The notes under the pieces: model-generated
The model's input: the letters and a program-made list of their open reading frames with translations, nothing else
Told to the model about the DNA's origin: nothing
Database searches by the model: none
Shown: piece after piece, positions 7,273 to 53,320 of the stretch
Numbering within the stretch: the first letter of the stretch is position 1
How the letters are laid out: every line of letters starts with the position of its first letter
Translations under genes and position numbers: made by a program
Assembly (NCBI GenBank): GCA_025999395.1
Contig: AP024682.1
Span: 173,638-237,637 of the forward strand
DNA: 64,000 nt
Direction of reading: 5' to 3'
Origin: Candidatus Parcubacteria bacterium
GTDB taxonomy: Bacteria; Patescibacteriota; Minisyncoccia; UBA6257; JAGOQP01

Positions 7273-7290
7273 TCCCCCCATTTTTTTATT
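7261..7290 (+). terminator. rho-independent terminator (tggggggag-tga-tcccccca + T7)
   Basis: GC hairpin followed by TTTTTTT; overlaps stop of small ORF and 3' end of convergent nuclease gene. Confidence 0.7.
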
Positions 7291-10200
7291 ACTGAGCGAT
7301 AATTCCTTTAATCTCAAAGTAAATATCCTTTAGAAAAGGTTGATCATTAAACCAACTAAGGTATTGAATCCAAGAATTATTTAAGCGAGAAAACAAATAA
7401 ACGCCTTCTTCTGGATAAGCTTCTTGATTATTAATTAGAGTAATTAAGTATTGATTAGAAGCTTCTTCTGCTCCTTGAGTCTCCATAACCAAAAAGTATC
7501 TTCCCGGATTAATTTGCAGAGGATTAGGTAATATTATTTTTTGGAATTTGGGCTCTCCCTGCCAGCGACTAATATTTTCTAAAACTATCTCTGTTAGTTT
7601 ATTTCCTGAAGGCAGATGATTATCATCTTCTGTTTGAATAGAGATTTTGGCTTGGATAGGAGGATTTTCTTGAAAACTTCCCAAAGAAAGATTTATTTCT
7701 TTAATCAAGGAAGGATTTTTGACATAAAAGCTTTGAGCAACTTTGGCTTCCGAAACAGGGCTTTCACTGCCACCAGTTTTAAAACCAAGATTTCCCCTCA
7801 TTGATTGAAGAGGAGCTTGAGCAATGATTTCCAAAGGCTCAATGCTTAAAGAAAGCACTGCTGGCTCTGAAGCTAACTCTATCTCGTCTTGAGCTCTCAG
7901 GTAAAAAAGATATTCTCCTTTTTCCAGGGGTCCAATTTTTGGCTCAATTTGAGTTGTTATTAAATTTCCATTTTCAATAGTTTGGCCAAAGGCTTTTTGA
8001 GCAATTTGCCAACGACTGTTATCTAACGGTTCTCCTTTTTTGTGATAATTAAATTGATAGGTAATTTTTTCATCTAAACTATCAGGGTCAGTTGAATTAT
8101 CCCAGCTTAGAAGAACAAAGTTATCATTTTCGCCGTTGGTTTTTTGAGCTTGAAAATTAGCAGGGATAGACGGGGGTTGGTGTAAAGGAAATTCTTTATT
8201 AAAAAAGAAGTTTCTTTTATCGGCGGCAATTAATTTGTAAGTAGTTTCTCCTAAACCACTTAGATTTTCTACGGCGTAATATCCTATTGAGACAAAATCT
8301 TTTTCGGTTAATTCTTTTTCTTGGCTGGAAAAATCAGCTATGGGAAGGATTATATTTTTATCTTCAATTTGGTTGAGATTTAAGGAGAGAGAATACGGTC
8401 CTTCTTGAAGGCGACAGTGAGTGTTGTCATCTGCCAAAAAAAGCGCCTCGTGTTTTGTAGGTAAATTATTTCCAGCGCAAGGAAGATAGTTAAGCGAAAG
8501 AGCCTTTTCACTAATTCCCTGAGTTTTGTTGTCGAAAGAATTAGTAAATCTGATTTCTTTAAGAGGAGGGCTATTTAGATAAAAGACAACCGCCTTCCAG
8601 CCATCAATAGTGGGCTTAGGATAAACCGAGGGAATGAAAGGGTAATCTTCAAAATTAATCTCAATTAAATATTGATCTTCGAGAGGATGTTTAAAAAAGG
8701 AAAGATTTTTTATAAATCCGGGAACAAAAATTTTAGCTTCAGCAACTAAAGAAGGCATCTTATCCTTATCAAAAGCTCTTACAAAAAGTGAGTATTCTTT
8801 TTCTACTTCATCAATAAAGACTTGCTGTTTGGTTTCTGAGGTTTGAATTGGATCGGATTGAGAGATCTCTGGAGAGGTGATTTGATAGGAAATTTCTTGA
8901 GAGTTTCCTAAAAAATCTTTTGAAGCCTCCCAGCTTAAATTTAGGGAGAGGCTTTCTTTATCGAAATTTACAACCAAATTTTGAGGAACGGAAGGAGCTT
9001 GGCGAGGCTCGGGAAGGTTGGAGGTATTTTGCGGTAAGGCTTGGGTTCGAATATAAAAATCTTTAGAAGAATTATCGGTGTCGCAGTTATTTCCTCCGAA
9101 CTCTCCTTCTTCTTGAGCAAACAAACACCGGCCTTGAAGAACTACTTTTCTTTCAAAGCTTTGGTTACTTTCGGTTAATGAGGAAAAAGAATTTTCTCCG
9201 ATTATCGGGCTTCCATAAAAGAAGGCATCTTCAATATTTGGATCGTTAATACTGGTGATTTTTTCTTTAGATTTAACAAGAAAAATTCCTCCCCCCTTAG
9301 AAGTGCCGGAGAGTGAAAAGCTAAAGGTTAAATCAGCTTGAGATGCAAATTTAGATTGGGAGTTGGCTAAAAGAAAAAACCCCAAAGGGGAAATTTGATA
9401 ATTATCTTCAAAATTTTTCTTGGAAATATTTTCAAAAGTCATCGCTTGTCCACTTAAATATTGAATTGAGTATCCTGCCAAAGAAATAGTTTCAGAAGTT
9501 GGATTATAGATTTCTATAAATTCGTCTTCTGGATTTTCTCCCCTAACTTGAATCTCGCTAATAACCAAATGATTTGCTGGGACAACTGGATTAACTTGAT
9601 TGATTTCTTTTTGGTTTGGTTGGCCTGGGGTAGGGTTAGCTTCTTGCCAGACCCCTTCAATTTTTTGAAGAGATTTACCGTTACCGTTTGCACCTGTATT
9701 CGATGAGTATTGATATTGATCAATAATGTTTTCTTGGTAGGTTATTCTAATTATCTCCCCATCGTTACCCAGAGAAAAAGAGCTGTCAAAAAGATTTCCG
9801 TTGAAGTTAGGAAAATCTTCGAGAAATTTTTGAGGATTATCGGCAATTACAGCATATTGACCGGGAATTAAATTCTCTAACCCTTGGGAAAATTCTATTC
9901 GGTGATTGGTATCGTTTTCATTTAATTTAAGATCAGTAACTTTGACTGTTTCTGAACCGGCGTTGTAGATTTCTATCCATTCTCTATCAGTATCTGAACC
10001 ACTGGGGTTATACATTATTTCATTTATCAAGATATCTCGAATTGTTTGAGTTTGATTGCTTTCTGATTGTTGGCTTGATCCTCCACCTCGAATTACTTCT
10101 TGTTGGTAAGGGGATGAATTTTCTTGTCGAGGAGTACCTCCAACAACACTTGAGGTGTGCCAAGCTAAATTGCTTTGATTTCTTTCCATTGTTCTTTTAG

Positions 10201-12349
10201 ATGAATTATCTCCTGCCGGCCAAGAGGGGGAAGCTAAAACTTCATCGGCTAAATTGCAATTGGGGTCAAAAAGCCTTAAATCCTCCCCCGAGTTTGCTAA
10301 AGAGCCAGTGTAAATTAAATCGGCTGAAACAGCAGGGACACTGTTATCATCGGTTCTTTCCAGTAAGAGAAATTTTCCCGGAAGTAAAGTTTTGGTAGCC
10401 GCTTCTTTAAGATTGATTTTAATTTCTTCGTTTTTGTCAACAATTTGCCAGCCAGAAAGATTGATGGGTTGAGAAGAGATGTTTTTAATTTCTATCCATT
10501 CATCGGAAGCGCTTTGAGTTGTCCCCATCCAGGCAATTTCGTTGAAAATAAGTGATTGTCTTTGAGGGGATTGAGTGGTTGAAAAGGAGCAGCTTTTTTC
10601 CTGAGAGGTTAAGAGGGTTAAATTTTTCTCATCTTGCTCTTTTTGTACTTGATTTTCTTTTTCCAAACATTTGTTTGGCGACCAGATGCCTTTTTGATTT
10701 TGACGAGTGCCTTTTTCTACATCCTCAAAGACATCTTCTAAGTCGTGAGGGTGATTAAAATTATAGGAATAAGCCAATCCCGCTTCTATTATCATTTGAT
10801 TAATGCTTTTGGAGGGGGAGGATTCTAGATAAACATATCTTAAAAGGCGACCAAAATTATCTTTATCTTGAGGGGAGGTTGTGTTTTTCTTTAGGAAAAC
10901 TTTTTTTCCTAAAACGAGAGAAGCATTGAAATCGCGCGCTTCTTTTCCTAAACACTCGACCTTTCCTCCTTCTGAAAATTCAGGAGCGTCAATTCCTAAA
11001 TAGCGAACTACTTGATTGTTTTCCAGTACAATAGTGTCGCCATCGATAACGCGGCTGACTAAGAAGGTTTCTTCTTTAGATGGGATTGTTATGTTTGGAT
11101 TTTTTTCTTGATTTAAGGAAAGAGAATCAAGTTTGTCTTCTTTACTTTTATTTGTCGGGAGTGATGGTGTTTTTTGAGAAGGTTGACCTTCTGTTTTTTC
11201 GTCTTGGTTAATGGTGTTTTCTATAGGAATTACGGCAACTTCTTGAAAAGAATTTTCTCTACTTGTTATTTTCTTTACTTTATTGATAATCTGATTAGCA
11301 ATTTCATAAATATAAGCCAAAACTCCTTTTTCTTTTTGGGTAAACTCGGGGTTATTTTTGTTTTTCTCTACTTCTTTAAAGAACAAATCAATTACTCCTG
11401 CTCCATATTCCACCGCTTTTACAGAAAGAAGGGACCAGTAGTCGTTCATTATCTTTTTGTTTTTATCAACTAATGACAGATTATTTTTATTTGTTATGGC
11501 ATAACCAAATCTATTGGGGGGAGATTTATATAAAGCAATTCTGTACCACCCTCCATCTTTGTCATACATTAAAATAAAAATCTCTCCGCTTTCTTCTGAT
11601 GTTATCTCTGACTGAGGTTTTTGATAACTGGTTTGTATTCCTATAGCATCTTTACTGAAAAAATTTTCGTTAGAATATTTTGCTAACTTATCAAAATAAG
11701 TCTCTAATTTCTCAAAGGATGGAATTTTATTAAGTTGGGGCCTTTTAGTTATTTCTTTTCCTAATGCGTATTCTTCATAGGGGCTACCTCTTAAATGATG
11801 ATCATTTCTTGCGTGGTCAGGAACGGAAAGATCTTCTACTAAATGAAGAATGTGTCCCAAAGTAAACATTGCCTCTTCTTTGTTTCCTTGAATCCATTGT
11901 TTCAAGGCTTTTTTCCAAATAAAAGCGCTTTCGGTAGAAAGCGCTGATATTTTTTTCTGTTGAATGGCGGTTAAGATTGAGGCAATGGTTGCGGTTATTT
12001 TATAAGTCGGGCTATTCTGAAGTGATTCGCTTTGGGCCCATATTTTTGATGACGAATATTCTATTCCTTTTATAAACAATCCTCTATTATGGATAGGATC
12101 ATAGAAGTGATTCAGCCAACGCGGGGGCTCATCTTCTTTTCTTGATCCGTCGATTAAGAAGGGGATAAGCTCTTCATCTATTTTATTTTGAGGATTATTT
12201 TGATTGTAGAAATTTACAATTTCTTTTGTTAGATAAGTATGAGTTTCTATTTCGTAGGCAAATGTTTCTTTTGATTGGTTAAAATTAATTGTAAATATGA
12301 ATAAAAAAAAGATAAAAAGAAAAATGCCCGCCTTTTTTCTTTTTAACAT
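7289..12349 (-). CDS. giant secreted multidomain nuclease: N-terminal Zn-dependent PLC/S1-P1-nuclease-like domain + staphylococcal-nuclease (SNase) domain + three lamin-tail (LTD) domains + FN3-like repeats
   Basis: signal peptide; GHILHLVEDLSVPDHARNDHH (PLC/S1-P1 Zn-site-like); SNase motif VIDGDTIV...RYLGIDAPE...FGRLLRYVY; LTD repeats IFNEIAWMGT...EWIEIKN, ILINEIMYNPSG...EWIEIYN, LVISEIQV...EFIEIYN. Confidence 0.8.
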   Translation of the reverse strand: MLKRKKAGIFLFIFFLFIFTINFNQSKETFAYEIETHTYLTKEIVNFYNQNNPQNKIDEELIPFLIDGSRKEDEPPRWLNHFYDPIHNRGLFIKGIEYSSSKIWAQSESLQNSPTYKITATIASILTAIQQKKISALSTESAFIWKKALKQWIQGNKEEAMFTLGHILHLVEDLSVPDHARNDHHLRGSPYEEYALGKEITKRPQLNKIPSFEKLETYFDKLAKYSNENFFSKDAIGIQTSYQKPQSEITSEESGEIFILMYDKDGGWYRIALYKSPPNRFGYAITNKNNLSLVDKNKKIMNDYWSLLSVKAVEYGAGVIDLFFKEVEKNKNNPEFTQKEKGVLAYIYEIANQIINKVKKITSRENSFQEVAVIPIENTINQDEKTEGQPSQKTPSLPTNKSKEDKLDSLSLNQEKNPNITIPSKEETFLVSRVIDGDTIVLENNQVVRYLGIDAPEFSEGGKVECLGKEARDFNASLVLGKKVFLKKNTTSPQDKDNFGRLLRYVYLESSPSKSINQMIIEAGLAYSYNFNHPHDLEDVFEDVEKGTRQNQKGIWSPNKCLEKENQVQKEQDEKNLTLLTSQEKSCSFSTTQSPQRQSLIFNEIAWMGTTQSASDEWIEIKNISSQPINLSGWQIVDKNEEIKINLKEAATKTLLPGKFLLLERTDDNSVPAVSADLIYTGSLANSGEDLRLFDPNCNLADEVLASPSWPAGDNSSKRTMERNQSNLAWHTSSVVGGTPRQENSSPYQQEVIRGGGSSQQSESNQTQTIRDILINEIMYNPSGSDTDREWIEIYNAGSETVKVTDLKLNENDTNHRIEFSQGLENLIPGQYAVIADNPQKFLEDFPNFNGNLFDSSFSLGNDGEIIRITYQENIIDQYQYSSNTGANGNGKSLQKIEGVWQEANPTPGQPNQKEINQVNPVVPANHLVISEIQVRGENPEDEFIEIYNPTSETISLAGYSIQYLSGQAMTFENISKKNFEDNYQISPLGFFLLANSQSKFASQADLTFSFSLSGTSKGGGIFLVKSKEKITSINDPNIEDAFFYGSPIIGENSFSSLTESNQSFERKVVLQGRCLFAQEEGEFGGNNCDTDNSSKDFYIRTQALPQNTSNLPEPRQAPSVPQNLVVNFDKESLSLNLSWEASKDFLGNSQEISYQITSPEISQSDPIQTSETKQQVFIDEVEKEYSLFVRAFDKDKMPSLVAEAKIFVPGFIKNLSFFKHPLEDQYLIEINFEDYPFIPSVYPKPTIDGWKAVVFYLNSPPLKEIRFTNSFDNKTQGISEKALSLNYLPCAGNNLPTKHEALFLADDNTHCRLQEGPYSLSLNLNQIEDKNIILPIADFSSQEKELTEKDFVSIGYYAVENLSGLGETTYKLIAADKRNFFFNKEFPLHQPPSIPANFQAQKTNGENDNFVLLSWDNSTDPDSLDEKITYQFNYHKKGEPLDNSRWQIAQKAFGQTIENGNLITTQIEPKIGPLEKGEYLFYLRAQDEIELASEPAVLSLSIEPLEIIAQAPLQSMRGNLGFKTGGSESPVSEAKVAQSFYVKNPSLIKEINLSLGSFQENPPIQAKISIQTEDDNHLPSGNKLTEIVLENISRWQGEPKFQKIILPNPLQINPGRYFLVMETQGAEEASNQYLITLINNQEAYPEEGVYLFSRLNNSWIQYLSWFNDQPFLKDIYFEIKGIIAQ

Positions 12350-12404: not shown

Positions 12405-12992
12405 TTAGAAACTCTCTATTTTCCAAACATTAGAATATTTATTAAGAATCATTACTAACTGAAGCTCTATTTCGCCGTTAGAGTTTTTGTAGACAAATAC
12501 ATGCTCAGAATCAGAAAATTTATAGTTGTCGTCATATCTTTTTATATCATCGGCAAATCTAATAAGATTTCCGTCTTCTTTTAGTTTTTTCAGCATCTCT
12601 ACCCATTGTTTATCAATCATTCCCTCTTCATTTAACGCAAAATACTTGCTTGCTAACTCAATATCTCCCTTTTTCAAAGCTTCTATAAACATTGCTAATG
12701 TTTCTTGAGGAGTTTTTCCTCCATAAGTGTCAGCCTTCATTGCTTCTTCATAATTCTTCTGAAATTCATAAAATTTTTGATATTTTTTCTCCAAATCTCT
12801 TCCTACTTTTGCAGATTCACTTAAGTAATTATTCCAAAGATAAAATCCTCCCAGAGTTAGGAGGATTATTCCTATAAAGACAGAACCGAACTTTAAAAAA
12901 GATTTTTTATTAATAGGGGAGGAAATATTACTTTCAAGATTATTTTCTTGAGGATTGCTTTGAGGAGAAAATTGCTCTTGTGATTCTTGCAT
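12405..12992 (-). CDS. hypothetical N-terminally membrane-anchored protein
   Basis: 195 aa, Q/N/S-rich N-terminus, single TM (VFIGIILLTLGGFYLW), no recognisable domain. Confidence 0.35.
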   Translation of the reverse strand: MQESQEQFSPQSNPQENNLESNISSPINKKSFLKFGSVFIGIILLTLGGFYLWNNYLSESAKVGRDLEKKYQKFYEFQKNYEEAMKADTYGGKTPQETLAMFIEALKKGDIELASKYFALNEEGMIDKQWVEMLKKLKEDGNLIRFADDIKRYDDNYKFSDSEHVFVYKNSNGEIELQLVMILNKYSNVWKIESF

Positions 12993-13206: not shown

Positions 13207-13236
13207 TTGACATCTTTTATTATTTCTTTCTATACT
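13207..13236 (+). promoter_or_regulatory. sigma70-like promoter TTGACA-N18-TATACT
   Basis: TTGACA 13207-13212, TATACT 13231-13236, upstream of 13268 ORF. Confidence 0.45.
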
Positions 13237-13267: not shown

Positions 13268-14029
13268 ATGTTTACCAAGGAGTTTTTCAATCAGAGATCT
13301 TTTGAGGTGGTGTGGGCAGTTTTTCGAGTGGCAGAATATATAAAGAGGGAAAAGATGAGGGAGGTTTTGGAAAACAAAGCGCTTGAGTATATTTATAGAA
13401 AGGATTTAGAGAGTTTGGCGAGTTTGGAAGATGTGGTTCGGTTAGCGGTAAATATTAAAGAAATAAGTCAAATAAACGGAAAGGTGATTTTAAGAGAAAT
13501 AGATAACCTCCGACAGGCAATCTTTGATATTTCGGCTCACCAGAACAGAACCCTTATAGAAAAAGATCCAGAAAAAGCTCCTAATGTAGAAACTATTTTC
13601 TCCAAGCCTCCTGTTTTGGCCTCAGAATTCTCAAAAATTTTAAAGGAGGTATCATTCTTTGATAATAATCACAAAAATAATCCGGCAATGCCATTAGAAA
13701 AAAGCGGCAAAGCCGAAGTTGAAAAAGATAAGGAAAATAGCCAAAATTTTGAAGTTGTTGAAAATAATCCGGCAATCGCAAACAAAAAAAGCGGCAATGT
13801 AAACTCAGTTGAAGACAAACAGATGGCTATTTTGGAAACGATTAAGGAGAGGGTTTTTTGTAGGCTAAGAGATTTAATCGCTCTTTATCCAGAAATGAGC
13901 GAAAGAACCTTAAGATACAACATTCAAAAGCTTATAGATAAAGGTTTAATAGAAAGAGTGGGAAGTGGCCCCGGATCTTTTCTTAAGCTTAAAAAGGCAT
14001 CAAAATTAGCTAAAAAAACAGCTTCTTAG
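13268..14029 (+). CDS. hypothetical protein with C-terminal winged-helix DNA-binding domain (putative transcription regulator)
   Basis: C-terminus MAILETIKERVFCRLRDLIALYPEMSERTLRYNIQKLIDKGLIERVGSG resembles DeoR/MarR-type wHTH; internal tandem duplication NNPAMPLEKSGK / NNPAIANKKSGN. Confidence 0.4.
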   Translation: MFTKEFFNQRSFEVVWAVFRVAEYIKREKMREVLENKALEYIYRKDLESLASLEDVVRLAVNIKEISQINGKVILREIDNLRQAIFDISAHQNRTLIEKDPEKAPNVETIFSKPPVLASEFSKILKEVSFFDNNHKNNPAMPLEKSGKAEVEKDKENSQNFEVVENNPAIANKKSGNVNSVEDKQMAILETIKERVFCRLRDLIALYPEMSERTLRYNIQKLIDKGLIERVGSGPGSFLKLKKASKLAKKTAS

Positions 14030-14209
14030 CTTTAAAGAAAGGGGGCTGGCTTTATTCCGGTTTCTTTTAAATTTTGAAGTTCTCATCATTCTAGCTTACA
14101 TACCTTGTAACATCTAATTTTATTTCTCGTTTTACTTTTTTAGAACCGAAAATTATTGAGGTTTATTGAACGGAAGGCTTCGATTGACTTAGTTTTTCAC
14201 AGTAAGAAG

Positions 14210-14237
14210 TTGACAGAAATTTATATTGGTTTAGAAT
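14210..14237 (+). promoter_or_regulatory. strong sigma70-like promoter TTGACA-N16-TAGAAT
   Basis: TTGACA 14210-14215, TAGAAT 14232-14237, in 670-bp ORF-free region upstream of giant surface protein gene. Confidence 0.5.
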
Positions 14238-14242
14238 GGAAA

Positions 14243-14498
14243 ATACACGGGAAGGTAATTCTTGGACGAACTGGATGAGTGATTCAGAAATGAGAGTTGT
14301 AAATTTATTCAGCTTTAACTAACTTCAGAAACAAGATGACAAGATAATAGGTTCTGTTCTCTTCTTTTTGAAAGGGTTTTGAAGATCAAAAAGAAGGGAA
14401 GGTGAGGCGGAACCAAAATTTTTTCCAAGGTTTCTTGGAGAAAAATAAATTAAACTTGTGTTTTCGCCTCACTTTCAAAAAGTGAGTTTTTGTTTTTA
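14243..14498 (+). promoter_or_regulatory. about 255-nt structured leader / candidate ncRNA ending in intrinsic terminator with an alternative upstream pairing (GTGAGGCG 14402-14409 vs CGCCTCAC 14465-14472 vs terminator stem CTCACTT/AAGTGAG + T-run 14487-14498)
   Basis: promoter-to-terminator unit with no ORF; mutually exclusive stems suggest attenuator/riboswitch-like control of downstream 14704 gene. Confidence 0.35.
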
Positions 14499-14703
14499 GA
14501 GAGTCGGATTGTTCTTTAAAAATTACCATTAATTAATGAAATAAGAGTTCTCTTTACTTATTTGCTTGCTGATTCGTCTTAACCGATGAAGCAGCAGGTC
14601 GATAATAAGTAAGCGAGAACTGTCGGGAAGTTTTTCCTTAGCTTCAAGCTAAGGGAATCATTAAAAAATTTTAATTAAAAGTAAATAAATTAAATTCCGA
14701 AAA

Positions 14704-17700
14704 ATGAGTACTACTTTTAAAAAATTCGCGTCGATTACGGTTTCTGCGGTGACAATGGTTTGGGCTTTGGGAGGAGTTTTTCCTTTCTCAGCGCAAGCTG
14801 CAACAGTTGAGGAGCTTCAAGCTCAAATTGCTCAGCTGTTAGCCCAGATCAATCTCTTGCAGAGCCAATTGACGCAGCAAGGAGGAGGTGCAAGCACTGG
14901 CACTTCTTACAACTTTACCCGAGACCTCACCTTGGGTTCAGTTGGAGAAGATGTTAGAGCTTTGCAGCAATTCCTTAATGCTCAAGGATTTACGGTCGCA
15001 ACCAGTGGCGCTGGTTCTCCCGGAAATGAGTCCACTTATTTCGGTCCCAAGACCAAAGCAGCTTTGGCTAAGTTCCAAGCCGCGAAGGGAATTTCCCCCG
15101 CTCTTGGATACTTTGGTCCTAAGACCAGAGCTTTTATTGCTACGATGGGAACTGGCACCGGAACTGGAACCGGCACTGGCACTGGAACCGGCACTGGAAC
15201 TGGTACTGGAACAACTCCAACCGGAACCGGGATTGTTTTTGCTGGCGTCTCAGTTAGCGGTGGTGATGTTCCAAAGGGAGCAACTGGTGTAACTGTCACC
15301 AAATTTGATGTTACTGCCAACGAAGCCTCTACTCTTCAGACATTAGTAGTAACCCTCAAAGGAGTAAGCTCTCCTTCTGATGTTAGCCGAGTCTACCTCT
15401 ACGAGGGAGACACTCGACTTTCTACCGGAAAGACCTTCTCTTCTGAAACTTTGAAAGCGGAATTCTCTAACTTGAATTTAGCTTTCACTGCTGGACAGAA
15501 GAGAACTCTTTCATTAGTGGTAGATGTGGCTTCGAGCGCTAACTCGGGAAGTGCTATCCAGATTGAGGTTTCCTCAGCTACCTTTAGCTCGGGAACTGTT
15601 TCTGGACTTCCTTTAGTGGGAGCTACAGTAAGAGTTAGTGGTGTTTCGGGAGCTACTTTGAAGATTGCCAACAGTGGTTCTGTTGCCAATGTTAAAGTTG
15701 GTGACACTAACGCTGTTTTGGCTAACTTCAGCTTAACCCCAGCCAACGAGCATGTTACCTTAAAGAGAGTGACCTTGCGCAACTTAGGAACCGCTGATAT
15801 TTCTACCTTTACTGACTGGGTGTTGGTAGATACTGCGGGAACCAAGTTAGCGGATGGTGTTGTTAATGGAAGATATGTAACCTTCTCTGGTTTCAACTAC
15901 ACCATTAACAACGGTACTCAGAGAAACTTTGAGGTGAAGGCTACAGTTGGGGCAGTGAGCAATCCCGGAACCTCTACAGTTCAATTTGCGGTTGATCAAG
16001 CTTCCGATGTCTATGCTGTAGGTAACTACTACGGCTACGGAGCTCAGCTGCTTGATAGCTCTGGAAATGCTTACTCAACTAATGCTTATCAGGAGACAAC
16101 TGCTATTACTGTTGAGGGTGGTCAGTTGACTTTCTCCTTTAATGGTCCTTCAGCTTCTAATGTTGCCATTAACAGCCAAGATGTAGTTTTGGCTGAATTC
16201 ACTCTATCTTCAGCAGTGGCTGGCTACATTGATTCAATTAAAGTAGCTGTCTATGCTGATGATGATGGTGACAATGATCCGTTTGATGGCAACCCTTCTA
16301 CTGCTTTTGATGCTGGGGGTTTAATCAGAGGTGATGGATCTGCCGATGTTGAGGCTAACTTGAAGGATATTAAGATTAAGAGAAAGTCAGATGGAGTAAC
16401 TGTTTGGGGACCACAAGAGCTTTCCTTGAGTGGAAACGATGCTACCCAAACCTTAACCTTCAACGAAGATGTCACTTTGACTACTGGTTCCGTTGTCTAT
16501 CAAATTACTGCTGATATCGACAACGATATGCCAGCTAGTGTAGAGATCGGTGCTTCGTTGGTTAACAATGGATTTAGCGCTTGGGATAGTCAGAACAACA
16601 CTATCACCAACGTAATTCCTTCCGTTGCCAATTTGGGAAGCATCAAGGGTAATGTAATGACCACTACCTCTGCTTCTTTCTCAGTTGCTTTGGCTTCTAA
16701 CCCAACTTCTCAAACTGTTGTTGGAGGAGGATGGGTTGATGCAGTAGGTTTGGTCTTTACTGCCGGATCAGCTTCCGATGTCACCGTCTCTTCCTTAACC
16801 TTACAAGGTATTGGAGATGATGATGGTTCTGGAGCTTCCTACACTGCTGGAGAATTCGATGATGTTGTTCAGCAGTTAACTTTGTGGGTAGGAAATACTC
16901 AATTGGGAACCGCTGTTTCTCCCAGCTCTGCTGGAACCTTTACTTTCAGCGGCTTCTCAAGAAAGATCTCTGCTGGACAGTCTGAGACTTGGGTAGTTAA
17001 AGCTTTGCCTGACACCACTTTGGGTGCAGCTACCCCTGACAAGTTCTACATTGATTTAACAAGAACAGCAGCTGGAGAGAGTACTAATGTAGGAGCAGTT
17101 GATAAAGACGGCAATCCTCTTAAGGCTACTAATAGCTCTGATTGGGGAGGAGCCAGCACCGAACTTAACGATGCTGGAGAAGTTGCTGTCACTGTCCAAT
17201 CTTCTGGCTCTTTATCAGTAATTTTGGATGGTAACGCTCCTTACAGCCAACTTCAGGTTGCTAATACTACCGGCAATGAGCTTTCTAAGTACCGCTTTGA
17301 TGCTCTCTATGAAGCTTTCAAGGTGGAGACTTTGTCGGTGGCTAACCTGACTTCAGCTGGAGCTTTAGCCGCTTCTGATGAGTTGGCAACCGTTAGTCTT
17401 TATGGAGCTGAAGGATCTGCTACTCCTTCTCCTATTGCTTCGGGATCATTAGATTCCAATGGAGTAGTGAGATTCTCTAACAGCGGTGGCCTCTTTACTG
17501 TTAATCCCGGTACTCCTTACTATGTAACAGTAAAGGCTGATGTTGCTGCTGAAGGAACTGGCTCCAGCGGTGCTGACTCTGGAGACAGCGTTCGTTTGTC
17601 TTTGTACTTGGCAGATGATAATGCAGTCACTGACTTTAGAGCGGTTGGTGTCAATTCTTCTTCTGCTGTACAAGAAGCCGACGCCGCTTCTGATAACATT

Positions 17701-18837
17701 GCTCCAGTAATCTCCAATCTTACCTTCGCTGATAACACCAGCAATGGTGATAACGATGCAGACTCGGTAGTGATTGCTGGAAACAATATGATTGTTCGCA
17801 AGTCTAAGCCCACTGTTGCCTCAACCAGCTCTTCTGGAACCTTGTCAAACGGTGAAAACACCTTACTTGAGTTCACTGTTTCCGCCTCTGGTTCTGATGA
17901 TGTTACCTTAAAGAGAATCCTTTTGGATTACTCTGAAACCGGAACCTTAGAGGTTTCTGACTGGAAGGTTTATGAGGGAAGCAGTGATATCACTTCTCAA
18001 GCAACCTTAAGAGCGGTTGGTGATTTTGATGGTAACGGCGCTTTGGATCTTGAAACTGATACTGATCTTACCAGCGGAGACATTGGTCTTTCTTCGGGTG
18101 CTTCAGCGGTAGTCTTCCTCACCTTTAACAGTGAGAGAGTAATTGCCGCCGGCTCCTCTAAGACCTTTGCTATTAAAGCCACTGTTTCTTCAGCTGGAAC
18201 TGGAGAATCAGTTACTTTGGGCTTGCGCAACGATTCAGTTAACTCCGGCACTCGAACAGCTTATGGTCAGTATCGCCAGTATGACTTCATTCTTGATCCA
18301 ACAGGAAATACTGTGAAAGTTAAGAGCTTAACCGGTAGCGACCTTGCTACTTTGGCGGTTGGTACCGAAGCTGGTTACGCATCGGCGGGAGAAGATGCGG
18401 GTAGTGGTTTGCGCCGCATTACTGGCTCCTGTGTAGCAGCAGTAGATACTGGTGTGGTTGCTAACAACACCTTCTTCTTTGACTTGAACTGCAACGGCAC
18501 CGATGAAACCGGTGAACCAACAGTAGCAGCTGCTAATGTAGAAGATGAAAGCTATGCTACTTTGTCTGGAGTTGATTTGAGCCGTGCGCCGTTGGTTATT
18601 TCCAGTGCCACCCTGATGTTCTTTGATGTCAACGGTAATGGAACCAACGACACCGGCGAAGCTGGATTGACTATCACTGGAGGCGTTACTGGTTCGGGTG
18701 GTGTTGTCTCCAACTTTGTCTGGTCTGATTCTTCAGCTGATATTCACTCCGAAACTAGCTCCGATTGGACTAATGGCTTCTATGTCAATGCTCCAACCGG
18801 AAATCTTTCTGGAGTGAAGAAAACTTTGAGCTTGTAA
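14704..18837 (+). CDS. giant (1377 aa) secreted cell-surface protein with N-terminal coiled coil, peptidoglycan-binding (PG_binding_1-like) domain, Thr-Gly linker and long Ser/Thr/Gly-rich beta-repeat region
   Basis: signal peptide MSTTFKKFASITVSAVTMVWALGG; LTLGSVGEDVRALQQFLNAQGFT...YFGPKTKAALAKFQAAKGI; (TG)11 linker. Confidence 0.65.
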   Translation: MSTTFKKFASITVSAVTMVWALGGVFPFSAQAATVEELQAQIAQLLAQINLLQSQLTQQGGGASTGTSYNFTRDLTLGSVGEDVRALQQFLNAQGFTVATSGAGSPGNESTYFGPKTKAALAKFQAAKGISPALGYFGPKTRAFIATMGTGTGTGTGTGTGTGTGTGTGTTPTGTGIVFAGVSVSGGDVPKGATGVTVTKFDVTANEASTLQTLVVTLKGVSSPSDVSRVYLYEGDTRLSTGKTFSSETLKAEFSNLNLAFTAGQKRTLSLVVDVASSANSGSAIQIEVSSATFSSGTVSGLPLVGATVRVSGVSGATLKIANSGSVANVKVGDTNAVLANFSLTPANEHVTLKRVTLRNLGTADISTFTDWVLVDTAGTKLADGVVNGRYVTFSGFNYTINNGTQRNFEVKATVGAVSNPGTSTVQFAVDQASDVYAVGNYYGYGAQLLDSSGNAYSTNAYQETTAITVEGGQLTFSFNGPSASNVAINSQDVVLAEFTLSSAVAGYIDSIKVAVYADDDGDNDPFDGNPSTAFDAGGLIRGDGSADVEANLKDIKIKRKSDGVTVWGPQELSLSGNDATQTLTFNEDVTLTTGSVVYQITADIDNDMPASVEIGASLVNNGFSAWDSQNNTITNVIPSVANLGSIKGNVMTTTSASFSVALASNPTSQTVVGGGWVDAVGLVFTAGSASDVTVSSLTLQGIGDDDGSGASYTAGEFDDVVQQLTLWVGNTQLGTAVSPSSAGTFTFSGFSRKISAGQSETWVVKALPDTTLGAATPDKFYIDLTRTAAGESTNVGAVDKDGNPLKATNSSDWGGASTELNDAGEVAVTVQSSGSLSVILDGNAPYSQLQVANTTGNELSKYRFDALYEAFKVETLSVANLTSAGALAASDELATVSLYGAEGSATPSPIASGSLDSNGVVRFSNSGGLFTVNPGTPYYVTVKADVAAEGTGSSGADSGDSVRLSLYLADDNAVTDFRAVGVNSSSAVQEADAASDNIAPVISNLTFADNTSNGDNDADSVVIAGNNMIVRKSKPTVASTSSSGTLSNGENTLLEFTVSASGSDDVTLKRILLDYSETGTLEVSDWKVYEGSSDITSQATLRAVGDFDGNGALDLETDTDLTSGDIGLSSGASAVVFLTFNSERVIAAGSSKTFAIKATVSSAGTGESVTLGLRNDSVNSGTRTAYGQYRQYDFILDPTGNTVKVKSLTGSDLATLAVGTEAGYASAGEDAGSGLRRITGSCVAAVDTGVVANNTFFFDLNCNGTDETGEPTVAAANVEDESYATLSGVDLSRAPLVISSATLMFFDVNGNGTNDTGEAGLTITGGVTGSGGVVSNFVWSDSSADIHSETSSDWTNGFYVNAPTGNLSGVKKTLSL
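15148..15213 (+). repeat. (GGN-ACN)11 microsatellite encoding Thr-Gly dipeptide repeat
   Basis: ggaactggcaccggaactggaaccggcactggc... 66 bp; potential slipped-strand length variation of surface protein linker. Confidence 0.8.
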
Positions 18838-19136: not shown

Positions 19137-21263
19137 ATGAAAAAAATTTCAAAAATTTTGATGATAGGGTTTATAACCTTTTCAGTTACTTTCTGGTCGA
19201 CCGGGGGCGTTCAAGCAGCTTCCACTGCTTCTCAGTTTACTAACAATGGTGCTCCCACAAACACTGTTGGTCGAGGAGATACTAATGTTCTTTTGATGGA
19301 TATTACTCTTTATGATCCAACCGATACTCTGGTTCATGATGGTTCACAACCGTCAGCAACAGGAGAAGCACTACTTTCTTTCCCCGCAGCAACTAAATTT
19401 TACGATGATACTGCTACTAACAACAATACTTACGATGATGGAGAAGCAATTATTAATGATGCTGATAACGACGGCTTTCCTTCTGCTGGAGACTCGGTTA
19501 TTACCTCAGGTAAAGCCAAGGTAAAAGGATTAAATAATCATAATGTTTGTTTTGATGGTGCTGATGCAGAATACGATGGCACAGAAGTTATTTGGTATGA
19601 TGCTGATAATGGCGGTTGTACCTCTGCTGCCTTTACTACGGGAGTAGATGTTATCTTAGTTGGTTCGGCTACTCCCTCTGGAGCTGGAGGAGGAGAATTT
19701 GCTGCTGGCGGAGAACAAGAGATTGGATTCTTAGATGAGGATAATAATGGCTCATACACCTGTTCTCGAGCAGGAACTTGTGAACCACTGGTTTATTCTG
19801 GAGTCAACGCCTCTAATATCACTGATGGTATAAATCTTCCCACAACTACCGCTTTCTTTGATTCATCAGCAGAAGCAACTGATGGTATCAAAACTACTGG
19901 TGTTGGATGGGATGAGACTGGTGGTGCTGAAGATTTAAACGCCTTCCCTGCTGGAAATAAGTTTCGCGACAATGACAACAACAGCGCCTACAACGATGGA
20001 GAGGATATTTACTTTGAACAAGATCCAAATGCTAATTCTGTGATCAACCAAGGGAGTTTAGGTCTAATTACTCTTATTAGAAATCTAGGAACAGGAAAAA
20101 ATTACGATATTTCTAATTGGCATATTTATAAAGAAAGCGGTGCTACTCCCGGATTTCAAGCAAACCAAGATTTACCATTAGATCTATTTATTACTGACTT
20201 TGATTCCAATCTTAATTATTGGACTCTTATACCAAACCCGCTCACAAGTGATACCACCTTCACCGCCAGTCAAAGAAGAATCTATATTACTGCTGACATT
20301 TCCTCAGGAGCTGATAATGGTCATACTTTTCAACTTAAAATAGATGTCAATGGTTTTGATATGGATGAGATCGATACCACTGGTGATGGACCTTCTGATG
20401 CTCCAATTATTAATTCTGGTATTATCACTATCAGTGTTCCTTCTATTGGTCCAGCTGACTCTACTCCACCAGCTGCTCCTTCTCAGGTTAAAGCCCAAGG
20501 AACTGGTAAAAGTGGAGAAATTAAGCTTACTTGGAAAAATCCTACTGATTCTGATTTTTCTGGAGTAAGAATCTTTCGATCTCTTTCTGAAGGAAAAGCC
20601 GCTATCAACGGAGAGATTATTGTTCTTTCCACTAAAGAAGAATCCTTTACTGATACTGGCCTAACAGATGGAAAAACTTATTACTATGTTCTTAAGGCAA
20701 TGGATGGAGCTGGCAATATGTCAGTCTCTCAGGAAGTAAGTGCGATTGCTGGCTCTCTTCCTCAAGAAACTCAACCATCTACTCCTTCTCAACCCCAAGA
20801 AGAAACCCCAATACAAACTTCTCCTGAAACCCAACCAACTCAACCAACTCAAGAAGGGTCCACTTCTCTTCCTTCTCTTGAAGAGCTTTTAACTATTTCT
20901 TTGCCCTATCCCAATCCTTCAGCTGCTGAAGAGATAAAGGCTGATATTGAATATCTCCAGAAAAAGTTACTCGACTTACAAAAAGCCGTTGCTCAAGCAA
21001 AAGGAGAAACCCTTCCTCCTCTAGCTAAAGTTTATGTCTTTAATACCGACTTTGGTAAGGGATTGCGAAACGATATTGTTAGAAACCTTCAAACCATCTT
21101 GGTTTATGAAGGTTTGCTTGATCCTCAATATGTCACTGGTTACTTCGGAAACATTACCTTTGAAGCTGTCAAGAAATTCCAAGCCAAGTACGGTATTCCT
21201 CAAACTGGTTTTGTTGGTCCCTTAACTCGCGCTCAACTTAATAAGCTTTACGGAGGAGAATAA
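19137..21263 (+). CDS. secreted surface protein with FN3 domain, Pro/Thr/Gln-rich linker and C-terminal peptidoglycan-binding (PG_binding_1-like) domain
   Basis: signal peptide; FN3 (PPAAPSQVKAQGTG...KLTWKNPTDSDFSGVRIFRS...YYYVLKAMDGAGN); C-terminal LRNDIVRNLQTILVYEGLLDPQYVTGYFGNITFEAVKKFQAKYGIPQTGFVGPLT. Confidence 0.65.
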   Translation: MKKISKILMIGFITFSVTFWSTGGVQAASTASQFTNNGAPTNTVGRGDTNVLLMDITLYDPTDTLVHDGSQPSATGEALLSFPAATKFYDDTATNNNTYDDGEAIINDADNDGFPSAGDSVITSGKAKVKGLNNHNVCFDGADAEYDGTEVIWYDADNGGCTSAAFTTGVDVILVGSATPSGAGGGEFAAGGEQEIGFLDEDNNGSYTCSRAGTCEPLVYSGVNASNITDGINLPTTTAFFDSSAEATDGIKTTGVGWDETGGAEDLNAFPAGNKFRDNDNNSAYNDGEDIYFEQDPNANSVINQGSLGLITLIRNLGTGKNYDISNWHIYKESGATPGFQANQDLPLDLFITDFDSNLNYWTLIPNPLTSDTTFTASQRRIYITADISSGADNGHTFQLKIDVNGFDMDEIDTTGDGPSDAPIINSGIITISVPSIGPADSTPPAAPSQVKAQGTGKSGEIKLTWKNPTDSDFSGVRIFRSLSEGKAAINGEIIVLSTKEESFTDTGLTDGKTYYYVLKAMDGAGNMSVSQEVSAIAGSLPQETQPSTPSQPQEETPIQTSPETQPTQPTQEGSTSLPSLEELLTISLPYPNPSAAEEIKADIEYLQKKLLDLQKAVAQAKGETLPPLAKVYVFNTDFGKGLRNDIVRNLQTILVYEGLLDPQYVTGYFGNITFEAVKKFQAKYGIPQTGFVGPLTRAQLNKLYGGE

Positions 21264-21457: not shown

Positions 21458-23734
21458 ATGGCAGTCACTAAGATTATTGGATATATTCTGCTTTCTTTAG
21501 TTTTTGCTCCTTTGCTGGTTGATATTTCGGTTTTCTTTCCTTATATTACCGCCAAGGTGATGTTTATTCGGTTAATGGTTTTGTTGGCGGGGATTCTTTT
21601 TTTTCTTAATTTTCTTTGGGAAAAGTCTTTCCGAGAAAAAGTCATTAAAAAACTATCTCTTCTTTTTTCTAATCCTCTTTTTATTTCGGTTCTTTTATTT
21701 CTCTTGGCAAATTTTTTAGGAACGGTCTTGGCGGTTGATTTTTTTCAGGCTTTTTGGGGAGATGTGGAAAGAGGAGAGGGGTTTGTGGGGCTTGTTTATT
21801 TCTTTGGTTTCTTTCTTTTTTCTCTTTTAACTTTTGAAGAAAAAGAATGGCGATGGTTTTTGCGTCTGTCGCTAATTTCGGGGTTAATCCTCTTTTTAGA
21901 TGAAATAAGGCAGTGGCTTTTCTTTCATCAAAGCCGGCCATCTTCTTTTTTGGGAAATCCTATATATTTAGGAGCTTATTTCCTTTTTATTATTTCGGCT
22001 GCCATTTTTGTTTTTTCAGAAAAAAACCCTTCTTTATCTAAGAGAAAATTTTCTTATTATTTCTGGAAAGTTTTGGCGGCGTTAATAATTCCTTTGTCGG
22101 TGGTAGGAATTTTGGTTACTCAAACACGAGGAGTAATTTTGGGCTTGGGAGTAGGCTTTCTTTTTCTTTCTTTTTATTTTTTAAAAGAAGGAAAGGATAT
22201 TTCTTTTTTTAAAAAGCTAAATTTTCAGCAATTGGGAGCAATTGTTTTGTTTTTTGTTTTTGCTTTAGGTGTTGGTTTTTTCCTCACCAAAGATCTTTCT
22301 TTTTGGCAGAAAATTCCCGGTTTTGATAGATTGGCAAAAATAAATTTTCAAGATGCCACCCTTCAGACGCGATTAATTGCCCTCAAAATCGGCCTTCAAG
22401 CCATCAATCCTTCCAATGAGGGAATTTCAAAATTTATTTTTGGCTGGGGGCCGGATAATTTCTTCATTGCCTATAATAAATATTACAACCCCACTGTTTA
22501 TCTTTATGAAAATAGTTGGTTTGATAGAGCTCATAACAAATTGATAGATGTCTTGGTGATGAATGGTGTTTTGGGTTTGTTGTTTTATCTTTTTATCTGG
22601 ATTTTCTTTTGGGCAGCGCTTCTTAAAAAAGAAGGTTCCTTGGCTAAGCATTTAAACTTTTCTCAAAGAGGCGGGCTTCTTTTCTGGGGGGTGGCTTATT
22701 TTTTCCAAAATCTTTTTGTATTTGATTCGATTGCGACTTATTTAAATTTTTTCTTTTTTTTGGCTTTGGTAGTTTACTTTTCTTCTTTAAAAGAAGTTAA
22801 GGGGGAAGTTAAGGAAGCTAATTTTCAAAAGGATTCTTTTACTCAAAATTTGGAAACAAGAATTTTTTTGGGCAAGAAAATTGCTTATTTTATGATGTTT
22901 GGAGTTTTAATTCTCTTTTTTTCTTCGAGTTTTTATTTTAGTTTGGTTGCTTACTCTCAAATGAAAGAATATTTATCGGCTTTACGCACAGGAAACGCTA
23001 ACTTAACTTTGGAAGCTTTTAGAAAATCTTTGACTCCCTACACCTATGCTCAAGAAAATATTCGCACTCATTTTGCTTCCTATATGCAGGATTATAACGG
23101 GCGAGGGGAAAAAGCTGATAGAATGATTTTAGAATCGTTAGTGGCTTTAGAGGGTTTGGTGGCTTTTGAAAAATATGACCCGCGTAATTTTTTGGTTTTA
23201 AGTCAATCTTATTTGGCTTTCGCTGAAGCTAAAGGAGATTTTAATCTTTTGAAATCAGCTGAATTTTATGCTCGCAAAGCTTTAGAGCTTTCTCCTCGAA
23301 GACAAAATGTTCGCTATCTTGTAGGAGAGATTTTGGTTTTAGAGGGAAGGCTAAAAGAAGCCGTCTCTCTTTTAAGAGAAACTTTAGCTCAGGAGCCGGC
23401 AGTAGGCGATTCTCATTTTCATTTAGCTTTAGCTCTTTTGGATGAAGGAAAAGATTCTTGGCCTGAAGCTTTCGATGAATTAGAAACTGCTTTTTCTTCG
23501 AGGGGACTTTATACTTTAAGAGCAAGAGATGAGGTTTTTTTGTCAAAAGTTTATCAAGATCTTTTTGAGTATTTTTTAAAAACCCGCGACACTCGCCGCT
23601 TTGTGGCTACTGCTCAAAGATTGATTTTGTTCTTTCCGGAAAGGGAAAGTTTGCTAAGGGAATTTATTGATGTGGCTCTTGAGGGAAAATGGGGGAAAAT
23701 TAATCCTCGCTTTTTTAAAAATGAGGGAATTTAA
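21458..23734 (+). CDS. O-antigen ligase/polymerase-like (Wzy_C) polytopic membrane protein with C-terminal TPR region
   Basis: 758 aa, >10 TM helices, Wzy_C-like loop (VTQTRGVILGLGVGFLFL), C-terminal soluble TPR-like repeats. Confidence 0.6.
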   Translation: MAVTKIIGYILLSLVFAPLLVDISVFFPYITAKVMFIRLMVLLAGILFFLNFLWEKSFREKVIKKLSLLFSNPLFISVLLFLLANFLGTVLAVDFFQAFWGDVERGEGFVGLVYFFGFFLFSLLTFEEKEWRWFLRLSLISGLILFLDEIRQWLFFHQSRPSSFLGNPIYLGAYFLFIISAAIFVFSEKNPSLSKRKFSYYFWKVLAALIIPLSVVGILVTQTRGVILGLGVGFLFLSFYFLKEGKDISFFKKLNFQQLGAIVLFFVFALGVGFFLTKDLSFWQKIPGFDRLAKINFQDATLQTRLIALKIGLQAINPSNEGISKFIFGWGPDNFFIAYNKYYNPTVYLYENSWFDRAHNKLIDVLVMNGVLGLLFYLFIWIFFWAALLKKEGSLAKHLNFSQRGGLLFWGVAYFFQNLFVFDSIATYLNFFFFLALVVYFSSLKEVKGEVKEANFQKDSFTQNLETRIFLGKKIAYFMMFGVLILFFSSSFYFSLVAYSQMKEYLSALRTGNANLTLEAFRKSLTPYTYAQENIRTHFASYMQDYNGRGEKADRMILESLVALEGLVAFEKYDPRNFLVLSQSYLAFAEAKGDFNLLKSAEFYARKALELSPRRQNVRYLVGEILVLEGRLKEAVSLLRETLAQEPAVGDSHFHLALALLDEGKDSWPEAFDELETAFSSRGLYTLRARDEVFLSKVYQDLFEYFLKTRDTRRFVATAQRLILFFPERESLLREFIDVALEGKWGKINPRFFKNEGI

Positions 23735-38411: not shown

Positions 38412-38750
38412 TGGTGGAGATGATGGGAGTTGAACCCATGTCCAAAGTAATTTTTAGTAAACCTCTACGAGCGTATCTCTCTTTAGAGAGAAAATAAAGT
38501 TGCCTCTTTTTTGTCCTTCTGTTTTTGGAGGCACAAAAACAGAAGTAAGTCTTGTTTCTTACACCGAACTTCCCTACAAGACCTCAGGAGTCGATGCCTC
38601 TCGATTTAAGCGAGAGGAAATCCCTGCTTTACGCAAAAGCGTAAGCGGGAGCCAAATTTTTGTTGGCAGTTATTTTTTTTGATAGCTTAACGGGCTATCA
38701 GGCGGCTCGCAGTTTACTAAAAATTTACTTTGTCGAATCCCGGCATCCCC
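38412..38750 (-). ncRNA. ssrA: tmRNA (ssrA), tag peptide ANKNLAPAYAFA
   Basis: 5' GGGGATGCCGGGATTCGACAAAG... (conserved GGAUUCGAC), 3' tRNA-like end ATGGG-TTCAACT-CCCAT-CATCTCC-A-CCA with G3:U70; internal ORF GCC AAC AAA AAT TTG GCT CCC GCT TAC GCT TTT GCG TAA; begins 11 nt after the smpB stop. Confidence 0.85.
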
Positions 38751-52952: not shown

Positions 52953-53026
52953 CGCGGCCGACCGGACTTGAACCGGCAACCCCCGCCGTGACAGGGCGGT
53001 GCTCTGACCAATTGAGCTACGACCGC
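52953..53026 (-). tRNA. tRNA-Asp (GTC)
   Basis: GCGGTCG-TA-GCTC-AATTGGTCA-GAGC-A-CCGCC-CTGTCAC-GGCGG-GGGTT-GCCGG-TTCAAGT-CCGGT-CGGCCGC-G; 74 nt, no encoded CCA. Confidence 0.85.
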
Positions 53027-53248: not shown

Positions 53249-53320
53249 TTGCGGGGGAGGGATTTGCACCCTCGATCTCCTGGTTATGAGCCAGGCGAGA
53301 TACTACTTCTCCACCCCGCT
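53249..53320 (-). tRNA. tRNA-Met (CAT), initiator-like (unpaired A1:A72, A11)
   Basis: AGCGGGG-TG-GAGA-AGTAGTA-TCTC-G-CCTGG-CTCATAA-CCAGG-AGATC-GAGGG-TGCAAAT-CCCTC-CCCCGCA-A; aligns closely to bacterial tRNA-fMet. Confidence 0.8.

Follow-up and report, generated by a model that had tools for sequence, protein, structure and literature searches.

The PyrR-dependent pyr attenuators of Bacillus (RF00515) place three competing elements in the leader just before the gene that they regulate: an intrinsic terminator, an antiterminator, and an anti-antiterminator whose loop is conserved. Binding of the protein to the anti-antiterminator causes termination. A leader built from similar parts, for which we propose the same logic, is described here upstream of the gene for a 1377-amino-acid (aa) surface protein of a Candidatus Parcubacteria bacterium. 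It lies in a 64,000-nucleotide (nt) stretch of contig AP024682.1 (assembly GCA_025999395.1, positions 173,638 to 237,637), which has a low GC content and large surface-protein genes and is referred to below as the window. Judged from sequence comparisons, this leader is likely to be a conserved cis-acting RNA that controls the main peptidoglycan-binding surface-protein gene of Parcubacteria by transcription attenuation. The class of mechanism, i.e., terminator/antiterminator attenuation with an anti-antiterminator, is already well known, and we rate the leader family as a new class of this known kind that is not in Rfam 15. It differs from the PyrR systems in that its loop, GUGAGG, is not the PyrR motif, its linker is hypervariable, its score is 21.2 bits against a gathering threshold of 54, and the gene that follows encodes a surface protein and is not a pyr gene. 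The weak Rfam resemblance to PyrR is attributed to the shared attenuator logic and not to family membership.

Other described systems share single traits with the leader. Genes for S-layer and other highly expressed surface proteins have long structured 5' untranslated regions (UTRs) with 5'-proximal stabilizer hairpins. The leader likewise extends over several hundred nt before a major surface protein, with a hairpin near its 5' end, but three mutually exclusive helices covary here, and we know of no conserved terminator with a dedicated complementary loop in S-layer-type leaders. Among transcriptional riboswitches, preQ1-I, fluoride and ZTP are of the pseudoknot type, and guanidine-II is a kissing-hairpin riboswitch. 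In the leader, too, the 5' arm of the terminator overlaps a segment with which the loop of an upstream hairpin pairs, and two distant hairpins with conserved loops (P1 and H2, described below) could kiss as in guanidine-II; unlike these riboswitches, it has no conserved binding core, Rfam match or metabolic gene. Kissing loops are also used by the antisense RNAs of CopA/CopT and RNAI/RNAII, and the lambda nut and rrn BoxB/BoxA sites combine a hairpin with a single-stranded box. A 6-7 nt loop on a stable stem, as found in the leader, suits the fast nucleation of pairing, and the conserved single-stranded box after H2 gives a layout like that of BoxB-BoxA, which recruits antitermination factors for long operons. 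However, the parts of the leader all lie in cis on one transcript, its GUCGA box occurs up to four times, and no Nus-type box sequence was recognized in it. What sets the leader apart is that it is specific to a lineage of the Candidate Phyla Radiation (CPR), tied to a surface-protein gene and joined to a second module. A literature search on structured RNAs, riboswitches and S-layers of CPR bacteria and Parcubacteria returned nothing relevant and no CPR cis-regulatory RNA.

The leader occupies a gap of 674 nt between a 253-aa open reading frame (ORF) and the 1377-aa protein gene, both on the + strand. An original prediction, made from the letters of the window, had described a promoter, a terminator, a competing helix and further hairpins in this gap, and all of these elements were found where it had placed them or within a few bases (Table 1). 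The TTGACA-N16-TAGAAT promoter at 14210-14237 agrees with the consensus at 11/12 positions and is the joint best in the 12-16 kb segment of the window; transcription would start near 14244. The terminator reads CTCACTTT-CAA-AAAGTGAG (14468-86) and then TTTTTGTTTTT (14487-97), so that a G-C stem-loop is directly followed by a U-run on the transcribed strand at 14468-97. The alternative pairing of GTGAGGCG (14402-09) with CGCCTCAC (14465-72) is also present and extends to 25-nt arms (14398-14422 / 14452-14476) that are 80% complementary. The further hairpins (ccaagg/cttgg at 14419-44 and ccttagc/gctaagg at 14633-57) exist as well, and the gap is indeed free of sizeable ORFs, with none >47 aa on either strand. 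The hairpin partner of the region around GTGAGG had to be corrected: GGTTCTG (14350-56) pairs with CGGAACC (14408-14) to form helix P1, whose loop in the window is G + GUGAGG (14401-07). This helix was missing from the original prediction, as were a downstream module consisting of the hairpin H2 and the box GGUCGAUAAU and the recognition that the post-terminator hairpins belong to the conserved design.

The region folds more stably than expected by chance. Relative to shuffled sequences, z-scores of -3.2 (14244-14500), -4.0 (14340-14500) and -7.0 (14244-14703) were obtained, and no shuffle equaled the native fold. The Rfam scan that had been called for together with the original prediction was run on the region with Rfam 15 (4227 models, including T-box, riboswitches, ribosomal-protein leaders and lysM motifs) and matched no family at gathering thresholds; at a permissive threshold (E up to 10), the best matches were the PyrG leader (22.3 vs 65 bits) and PyrR (21.2 vs 54 bits), both with E >2. 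Searches by blastn, motif scan and covariance model revealed no second copy of the leader in the window. A 147-nt internal duplication suggested by a repeat was not significant.

A scan of species-representative genomes provided 80 loci of the surface-protein family (L002-L081), and the counts given below are mostly over 79 non-redundant loci. The same leader parts were found in the same order in relatives whose surface proteins are only ~30% identical: a sigma-70-like promoter, P1, a linker, a (G)CCUC(A/G)C box that is the 5' arm of the terminator, H2, GGUCGA immediately 3' of H2 and often additional GUCGA boxes within A-rich sequence, and an ATG without a Shine-Dalgarno (SD) sequence. Besides being a terminator arm, the box is complementary to the P1 loop together with the 1-3 bases after it. 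P1 has a stem of 5-8 base pairs (bp) and a 7-nt loop of the form N + GUGAGG; in some species, including L003, L004, L006, L014, L052 and L069 as well as the window, an additional hairpin, P1a, is inserted 5' of the loop. The 5' extension that precedes P1 in the window (Table 1) is found neither in the closest relative, L002, nor in L006 and L014. P1 candidates were detected in 64/79 loci; in 50/79, P1 was accompanied by a terminator with a 5' arm that is complementary to the loop across 7 nt or more. H2 with CCUCAC followed by GGUCG was present in 44/79, and GGUCG at most 300 nt from the ATG in 73/79. The linker from P1 to the box varies between 17 and 174 nt, is usually a low-complexity hairpin and has no conserved column. 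In L013, L017, L025, L044, L062, L008 and L028, these hairpins are made of short repeats, which are UUAGG (5' side) and CCUAA (3' side) in one type and AUUGAAA-like in another; the linker thus seems to be free in sequence and to keep its hairpin character.

The closest relative, L002, encodes a protein that is 64% identical and retains synteny (helix-turn-helix (HTH) gene, 340-nt gap, surface gene). Its gap contains TTGACA-17-TATACT followed by GTGAGGta ... taCCTCAC-TGAAA-AGTGAG-TTTTTT, where ta/ta in place of cg/cg in the window is a double compensatory change in the antiterminator pairing. A search with nhmmer using the window leader additionally matched upstream of the distant homologues L006 (7e-10), L014 (4e-9) and L061 (1e-5). 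The original prediction would have been refuted by a lack of conservation in related genomes, but this refutation clearly failed: the architecture was encountered again at 50-52 of the 79 species-level loci and at 50 loci from metagenomes. Altogether, the design stands before the same gene in well over 100 sequences of uncultured Parcubacteria (CPR), in genomes labelled Jorgensen-, Lipton-, Wolfe-, Harrison-, Wildermuth- and Niyogibacteria and others. Some public bins with a Parcubacteria-type gene (e.g., L003, L006, L027, L029 and L047) are labelled Saccharibacteria, Gammaproteobacteria, Prolixibacteraceae or Nanoarchaeota; L003, L006 and L027 carry leader elements too, and the odd labels probably reflect mislabelling or contamination.

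Covariation was assessed in an alignment (A2) of 42 mini-leaders, each consisting of P1 and terminator with the linker cut out, which were aligned in register. GUGAGG was invariant in this alignment. The P1 stem was paired in 87% of cells, with two-sided changes at 7/7 pairs. For the antiterminator, 90% of cells were paired, compared to at most 47% in slid controls, and 4 pairs outside the invariant core changed on both sides; one antiterminator pair was U-A in 11 sequences, C-G in 10 and G-C in 3. In an anchored permutation analysis, the pairing of cognate loop and box extended beyond the core by 2.24 bp vs 1.48 bp for non-cognate combinations, a value reached by 0/10000 permutations. The terminator stem was 84.7% paired and switches between CUCAC/GUGAG and CUCGC/GCGAG (G-C 32 vs A-U 9 at one pair), and the P1 loop, which remains GUGAGG throughout, accommodates the G variant of the box via a U-G wobble. 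G-U pairs were frequent, with U-G in 32/42 sequences at one antiterminator pair, and since they correspond to A-C mismatches on the other strand, they point to a constraint on the + strand RNA rather than on DNA. The pairing that sequesters the 5' arm of the terminator is therefore both conserved and covarying, as in an attenuator, and the central claim of the original prediction, namely that a leader between promoter and terminator controls read-through into the surface-protein gene by terminator and antiterminator folds that exclude each other, gains its support from the conservation and covariation of P1, antiterminator and terminator.

The leader is also specific to this position in the genome. 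A covariance model built from 30 other species, with the window excluded, had one significant match in the window, with 32 bits and an E of 1.9e-5, on the + strand at 14398-14495, and no other match had an E below 0.47; the outer stem of P1 remained unaligned in this match because of the 44-nt P1a insertion. Applied to the 80 loci, the model returned 52 matches at E <=0.01, all on the + strand and all 100-600 nt upstream of the family gene, and 0 elsewhere in 628 kb. Metagenomes were scanned by DNA pattern alone (GTGAGGC-N80-110-GCCTCGCT-N2-9-AGCGAGTTTT), which yielded 50 loci. A family gene started 137-570 nt downstream on the same strand in 38 of them; 10 of the remainder had too little downstream sequence and 2 were borderline cases with only ~480 nt of room. 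The strict cis-linkage to the surface-protein gene argues against a free-standing small RNA (sRNA) gene.

Promoters with at least 10/12 consensus positions were found within 90 nt upstream of P1 in 14/51 loci, compared to 2/51 in the 2.5-fold longer stretch between terminator and ATG. Among promoters of at least 9/12, the -10 box (TATAAT-like in relatives) ends at a median of 17 nt before P1, and P1 would thus be close to the 5' end of the transcript. The arrangement is that of an attenuator: the promoter precedes the terminator, and the stretch from the terminator to the ORF has no promoter of similar quality, although the window has a weak 9/12 site there. The surface-protein gene appears to depend on read-through.

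Forced folds indicated which of the competing structures is preferred. The nested antiterminator was more stable than P1 plus terminator in 33/42 loci, with a median difference of -4.1 kcal/mol and -2.2 kcal/mol in the window. The antiterminator region of the window has -33.1 kcal/mol, and its minimum-free-energy fold holds the antiterminator and not the terminator; folds of the window change over from P1 to this helix when they extend to the CCUCAC box. Read-through is probably the thermodynamic default, and termination would then need a factor that locks P1. In the mechanism that we propose, P1 would fold first and act as a kinetic anti-antiterminator, and its exposed loop would nucleate pairing with the CCUCRC box as soon as the box is transcribed. 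The antiterminator helix would then extend the base of the linker hairpin and block the terminator, so that RNA polymerase reads into the gene and the default state is ON. For termination to occur, P1 would have to be locked, and the most plausible agent for this, according to the logic of the PyrR attenuators, is a trans-acting factor recognizing the invariant loop; one candidate for such a factor is the neighboring protein with a four-helix bundle and a winged HTH (wHTH).

Several observations weigh against control by attenuation. About one third of the family loci lack the P1/terminator module and still keep GUCGA boxes, which means that the attenuator is not essential for the gene. The window itself is an outlier, as its -10 box ends 112 nt before P1 vs ~17 nt in relatives. 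Its terminator is weak (-7.8 kcal/mol, 3 G-C pairs) and its antiterminator is favored; the leader could therefore read through constitutively. In this organism, transcription from the weak promoter-like site 3' of the terminator (14579-14606) could circumvent the attenuator. The RNA partners of GUGAGG, i.e., the terminator box and the H2 loop, could account for its invariance in place of a protein. Additionally, the shuffle controls for P1, antiterminator and terminator ignore phylogeny, a caveat that holds even though the loci are species representatives.

These points are best weighed together with the other explanations of the leader. It might be a constitutive structural 5' UTR without a switch, in which P1, the long hairpins and a possible P1-H2 contact stabilize a very abundant mRNA and the terminator is always overridden by the antiterminator or is merely a leaky insulator. 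The preference for the antiterminator in most loci, the start of P1 ~10 nt after the inferred transcription start, the highly structured leader (z = -7), the weak window terminator and the lack of an effector among our results agree with this. However, an unused terminator would not retain a U-run, or a covarying stem with a dedicated complementary loop, over >100 sequences, and a stabilizer hairpin needs no invariant loop sequence; we consider this explanation unlikely. The original prediction had left the choice between an attenuator-type cis leader, a riboswitch and a stand-alone sRNA, and the first of these fared best. For a riboswitch, in which a small molecule or ion would stabilize the pseudoknot of P1 loop and CCUCRC box or a P1-H2 kissing contact and so control termination, speak the pseudoknot over a terminator arm, which is a frequent riboswitch layout, the strikingly invariant loop sequences and the existence of very small kissing-hairpin riboswitches such as guanidine-II. 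Against it, no Rfam model matched even at E up to 10, conservation does not go beyond the stems, the 6-8 nt loop and the complement of this loop (GUGAGG loop and CCUCRC box), the linker of 17-174 nt has no conserved positions, no junction or pocket-like ligand core is visible beyond the switching helices, and the product of the regulated gene, a structural surface protein, has no obvious connection to a metabolite. A riboswitch thus has very little probability. A stand-alone sRNA gene, with the surface gene transcribed from its own downstream promoter, or a variant in which the free GUGAGG loop acts in trans, would account for a unit with its own promoter and terminator, for the weak promoter-like site after the window terminator and for the complementarity between the GUGAGG loop of a terminated transcript and the CCUCAC loop of H2 in full-length mRNAs. 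But the unit is no independent one: it was never seen away from the surface gene (38 metagenome loci, 52 model matches), it is present as a single copy per locus, good promoters between terminator and ATG are rare (2/51), and the CCTCAC-GGTCGA spacing of 8-22 or >50 nt is unfit for a -35/-10 pair. The sRNA option of the original prediction is accordingly improbable.

The remaining alternatives carry even less weight. If the element acted at the DNA level, the GTGAGG/CCTCAC inverted repeats and GGTCGA boxes would be operators for a DNA-binding regulator such as the neighboring wHTH protein, which is encoded alongside in 33 loci, and the repetition of the boxes would be in line with this. Such operators are highly improbable, since the repeats are 36-174 nt apart, the covarying stems use G-U pairs that are A-C mismatches on the other strand, and GGTCGA is strictly strand-specific (82 vs 0). 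Attenuation by a leader peptide would use the 27-codon ORF that runs from the GUG of the P1 loop to a UGA in the 3' arm of the terminator and spans exactly the distance from loop to terminator in the window. In 51 loci, however, the equivalent ORF has 2-117 codons (median 10), stops before the terminator in 42, and the terminator falls into all three frames about equally often. The ORF is therefore not conserved in relatives, it is probably a by-product of the two boxes, and a leader peptide was rejected as having next to no probability. Other readings of single motifs were discarded as well. CCTCAC...GGTCGATAAT (CCTCAC-N-GGTCGA(TAAT)) does not qualify as a -35/-10 promoter, including the extracytoplasmic function (ECF) type, as its spacing is 8-22 or >50 nt and the flanking stems differ between species. 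GAGG/CCUC does not qualify as SD/anti-SD or STAB-SD, with an SD-like motif in only 6/41 window ORFs (of at least 100 aa) and 1/81 family genes, the start regions of the window being A/U-rich. In ANTAR antiterminator substrates, two hairpins with 6-nt loops stand in tandem and the second of them overlaps the terminator, whereas the leader has one hairpin with a 7-nt loop of N + GUGAGG and no second small conserved hairpin over the terminator. GUGAGG, CCUCAC and GUCGA had no complement in the transfer-messenger RNA (tmRNA) or tRNAs of the window.

Downstream of the putative attenuator lies the second module. The loop of H2 in many relatives is CUCACC and shows CCUCAC, the exact complement of the P1 loop; of 44 sequences folded to minimum free energy, 37 have CCUCAC in the apical loop, and the stem sequences differ between species. 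Covariation of H2 was not formally counted: RNAalifold predicted no base pairing on a MAFFT alignment, in which the stems, being of unequal length, were out of register, and was replaced by folds of each sequence. L002, L006 and L014 share the H2 block GCTGATTCGTCCTCACCGATGAAGCAGCGGGTCGATAAT with the window in nearly identical form. In the window, two substitutions in the loop (CUCACC to UUAACC, 14579-84) weaken the complementarity to the P1 loop and give rise to the weak promoter-like site TTAACC-16-GATAAT. The P1-H2 complementarity allows a kissing contact in cis or in trans, and this loop-loop pair is missing in ~40% of loci, the window included. The third hairpin, further downstream, has no counterpart with conserved sequence or position in relatives, which often have some hairpin.

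GUCGA boxes occur 0-4 times per leader, mostly 1-3 times, with the consensus A-rich, R, GUCGA, W, A-rich. Between terminator and ATG, GGTCGA was counted 82 times and its reverse complement 0 times. RGTCGAWA is ~49-fold enriched in leaders vs the rest of the loci, and RGTCGAWAA has its single match in the 64-kb window in the surface-protein leader; a role of the boxes as general translation enhancers was rejected on these grounds. Their strand specificity, repetition and A-rich context suggest a site for a single-strand RNA-binding protein or a stability/translation element, and the module of H2 and GUCGA boxes probably acts after transcription, as a protein-binding element or one that affects mRNA stability or translation. 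Loci without P1 and terminator often keep the boxes, and the module is thus older or more general than the attenuator. In one group of relatives (L007, L015, L018 and L027), H2 is replaced, 70 nt ahead of the first GGTCGA, by a hairpin that carries GUCGAAA and not CCUCAC in its apical loop, indicating that the box can be presented in a loop or single-stranded.

Table 1. Positions of the predicted leader elements and of other features in the window.
Feature	Position	Strand	Remarks
Sigma-70-type promoter	TTGACA 14210-15, 16-nt spacer, TAGAAT 14232-37	+	11/12 consensus positions
5' leader extension	14245-14349	+	two predicted hairpins, 14248-64 and 14271-14312
P1, putative anti-antiterminator hairpin	14350-14414	+	outer stem 14350-56/14408-14; P1a 14357-14400 inserted; -24.2 kcal/mol
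Antiterminator helix	14398-14422 (with GUGAGGCG 14402-09) pairs 14452-14476 (with CGCCUCAC 14465-72)	+	encloses linker hairpin 14419-44
27-codon ORF	14402-14485	+	probably a by-product
Intrinsic terminator	5' arm 14468-75, loop 14476-78, 3' arm 14479-86, U-run 14487-97	+	-7.8 kcal/mol, 3 G-C pairs
H2 hairpin	14541-14621	+	apical stem 14573-78/14585-90, loop UUAACC 14579-84; -34.9 kcal/mol
Weak promoter-like site	14579-14606	+	TTAACC-16-GATAAT; 9/12; 3' of terminator
First GUCGA box, GGUCGAUAAU	14597-14606	+	partly paired in H2 base
Third hairpin, TTTCCTTAGCTT / AAGCTAAGGGAA	14633-57	+	-13.3 kcal/mol; precedes A/U-rich start region without SD sequence
Surface-protein gene	14704-18837	+	1377 aa; signal peptide, coiled coil, PG_binding_1 domain, long beta-rich region; secreted
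Upstream neighbor gene	13268-14029	+	253 aa; four-helix bundle, disordered linker, C-terminal winged helix-turn-helix
Promoter-like site of neighbor	13207-13236	+	TTGACA-18-TATACT
1686-aa protein gene	7289-12349	-	
195-aa protein gene	12405-12992	-	
708-aa protein gene	19137-21263	+	fn3/PG_binding_1
758-aa protein gene	21458-23734	+	
tmRNA	38412-38750	-	149 bits (Rfam)
tRNA gene	52953-53026	-	
tRNA gene	53249-53320	-	
tRNA gene	54493-54566	+	

The regulated protein belongs to a PG_binding_1 family of ~1140 aa that is found throughout Parcubacteria, most members being ~30% identical to the window copy, and may be the major envelope protein. The identical 1377-aa protein is recorded on only one further contig. 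The 253-aa neighbor, which is syntenic with the leader in 33/80 loci and has a strong promoter-like site of its own, is a possible regulator of the locus. It has a weak DeoR-like HTH, and its structure model (mean pLDDT, i.e., predicted local distance difference test score, of 79.8) consists of the three parts given in Table 1. The C-terminal winged HTH is of the MarR/BlaI/MotA type, and the N-terminal four-helix bundle has weak fold similarity to Xcc0516 (2gsc) and to Avd of a phage diversity-generating retroelement (4dwl). Domain and fold searches of the protein returned only the wHTH and a generic four-helix bundle with the weak Avd similarity, and none of the results obtained links it directly to the leader RNA.

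Further genes and RNAs surround the locus. A homologue of the 758-aa protein is found 3' of the surface-protein gene in ~40 loci, ~3.5 kb downstream of the family gene, and forms a conserved cluster with it; in the window, an extra 708-aa gene sits between the two. On the other side, the 1686-aa protein contains a staphylococcal-nuclease domain and three lamin-tail domains and is probably a secreted or surface nuclease, and the 195-aa gene adjoining it has no Pfam match. The only Rfam matches in the window were the tmRNA and three tRNA genes.

Beyond attenuation in cis, the leader might be the visible part of a hitherto undescribed CPR-specific RNA circuit, a possibility that we regard as doubtful. 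In one form of it, the GUGAGG loop and the GUCGA boxes would bind a new RNA-binding regulator, possibly the neighbor. In the other, RNA-RNA kissing would occur in trans: terminated leaders would expose a free GUGAGG loop, and full-length mRNAs, with their own GUGAGG locked in the antiterminator, would expose the free CCUCAC loop of H2, so that kissing could couple transcription attenuation to the abundance of the surface-protein mRNA.

Parcubacteria and other CPR bacteria are uncultured and have tiny genomes, and to our knowledge almost nothing has been described about their gene regulation. Even if the effector is ordinary or absent, the leader is still a new RNA family, and it can serve as a marker for annotating the surface-protein locus in metagenomes. 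The P1 loop and the GUCGA boxes provide bait for a first RNA-binding regulator of the CPR, and with the leader, transcription attenuation in these bacteria can be put into a concrete model that is easy to test.

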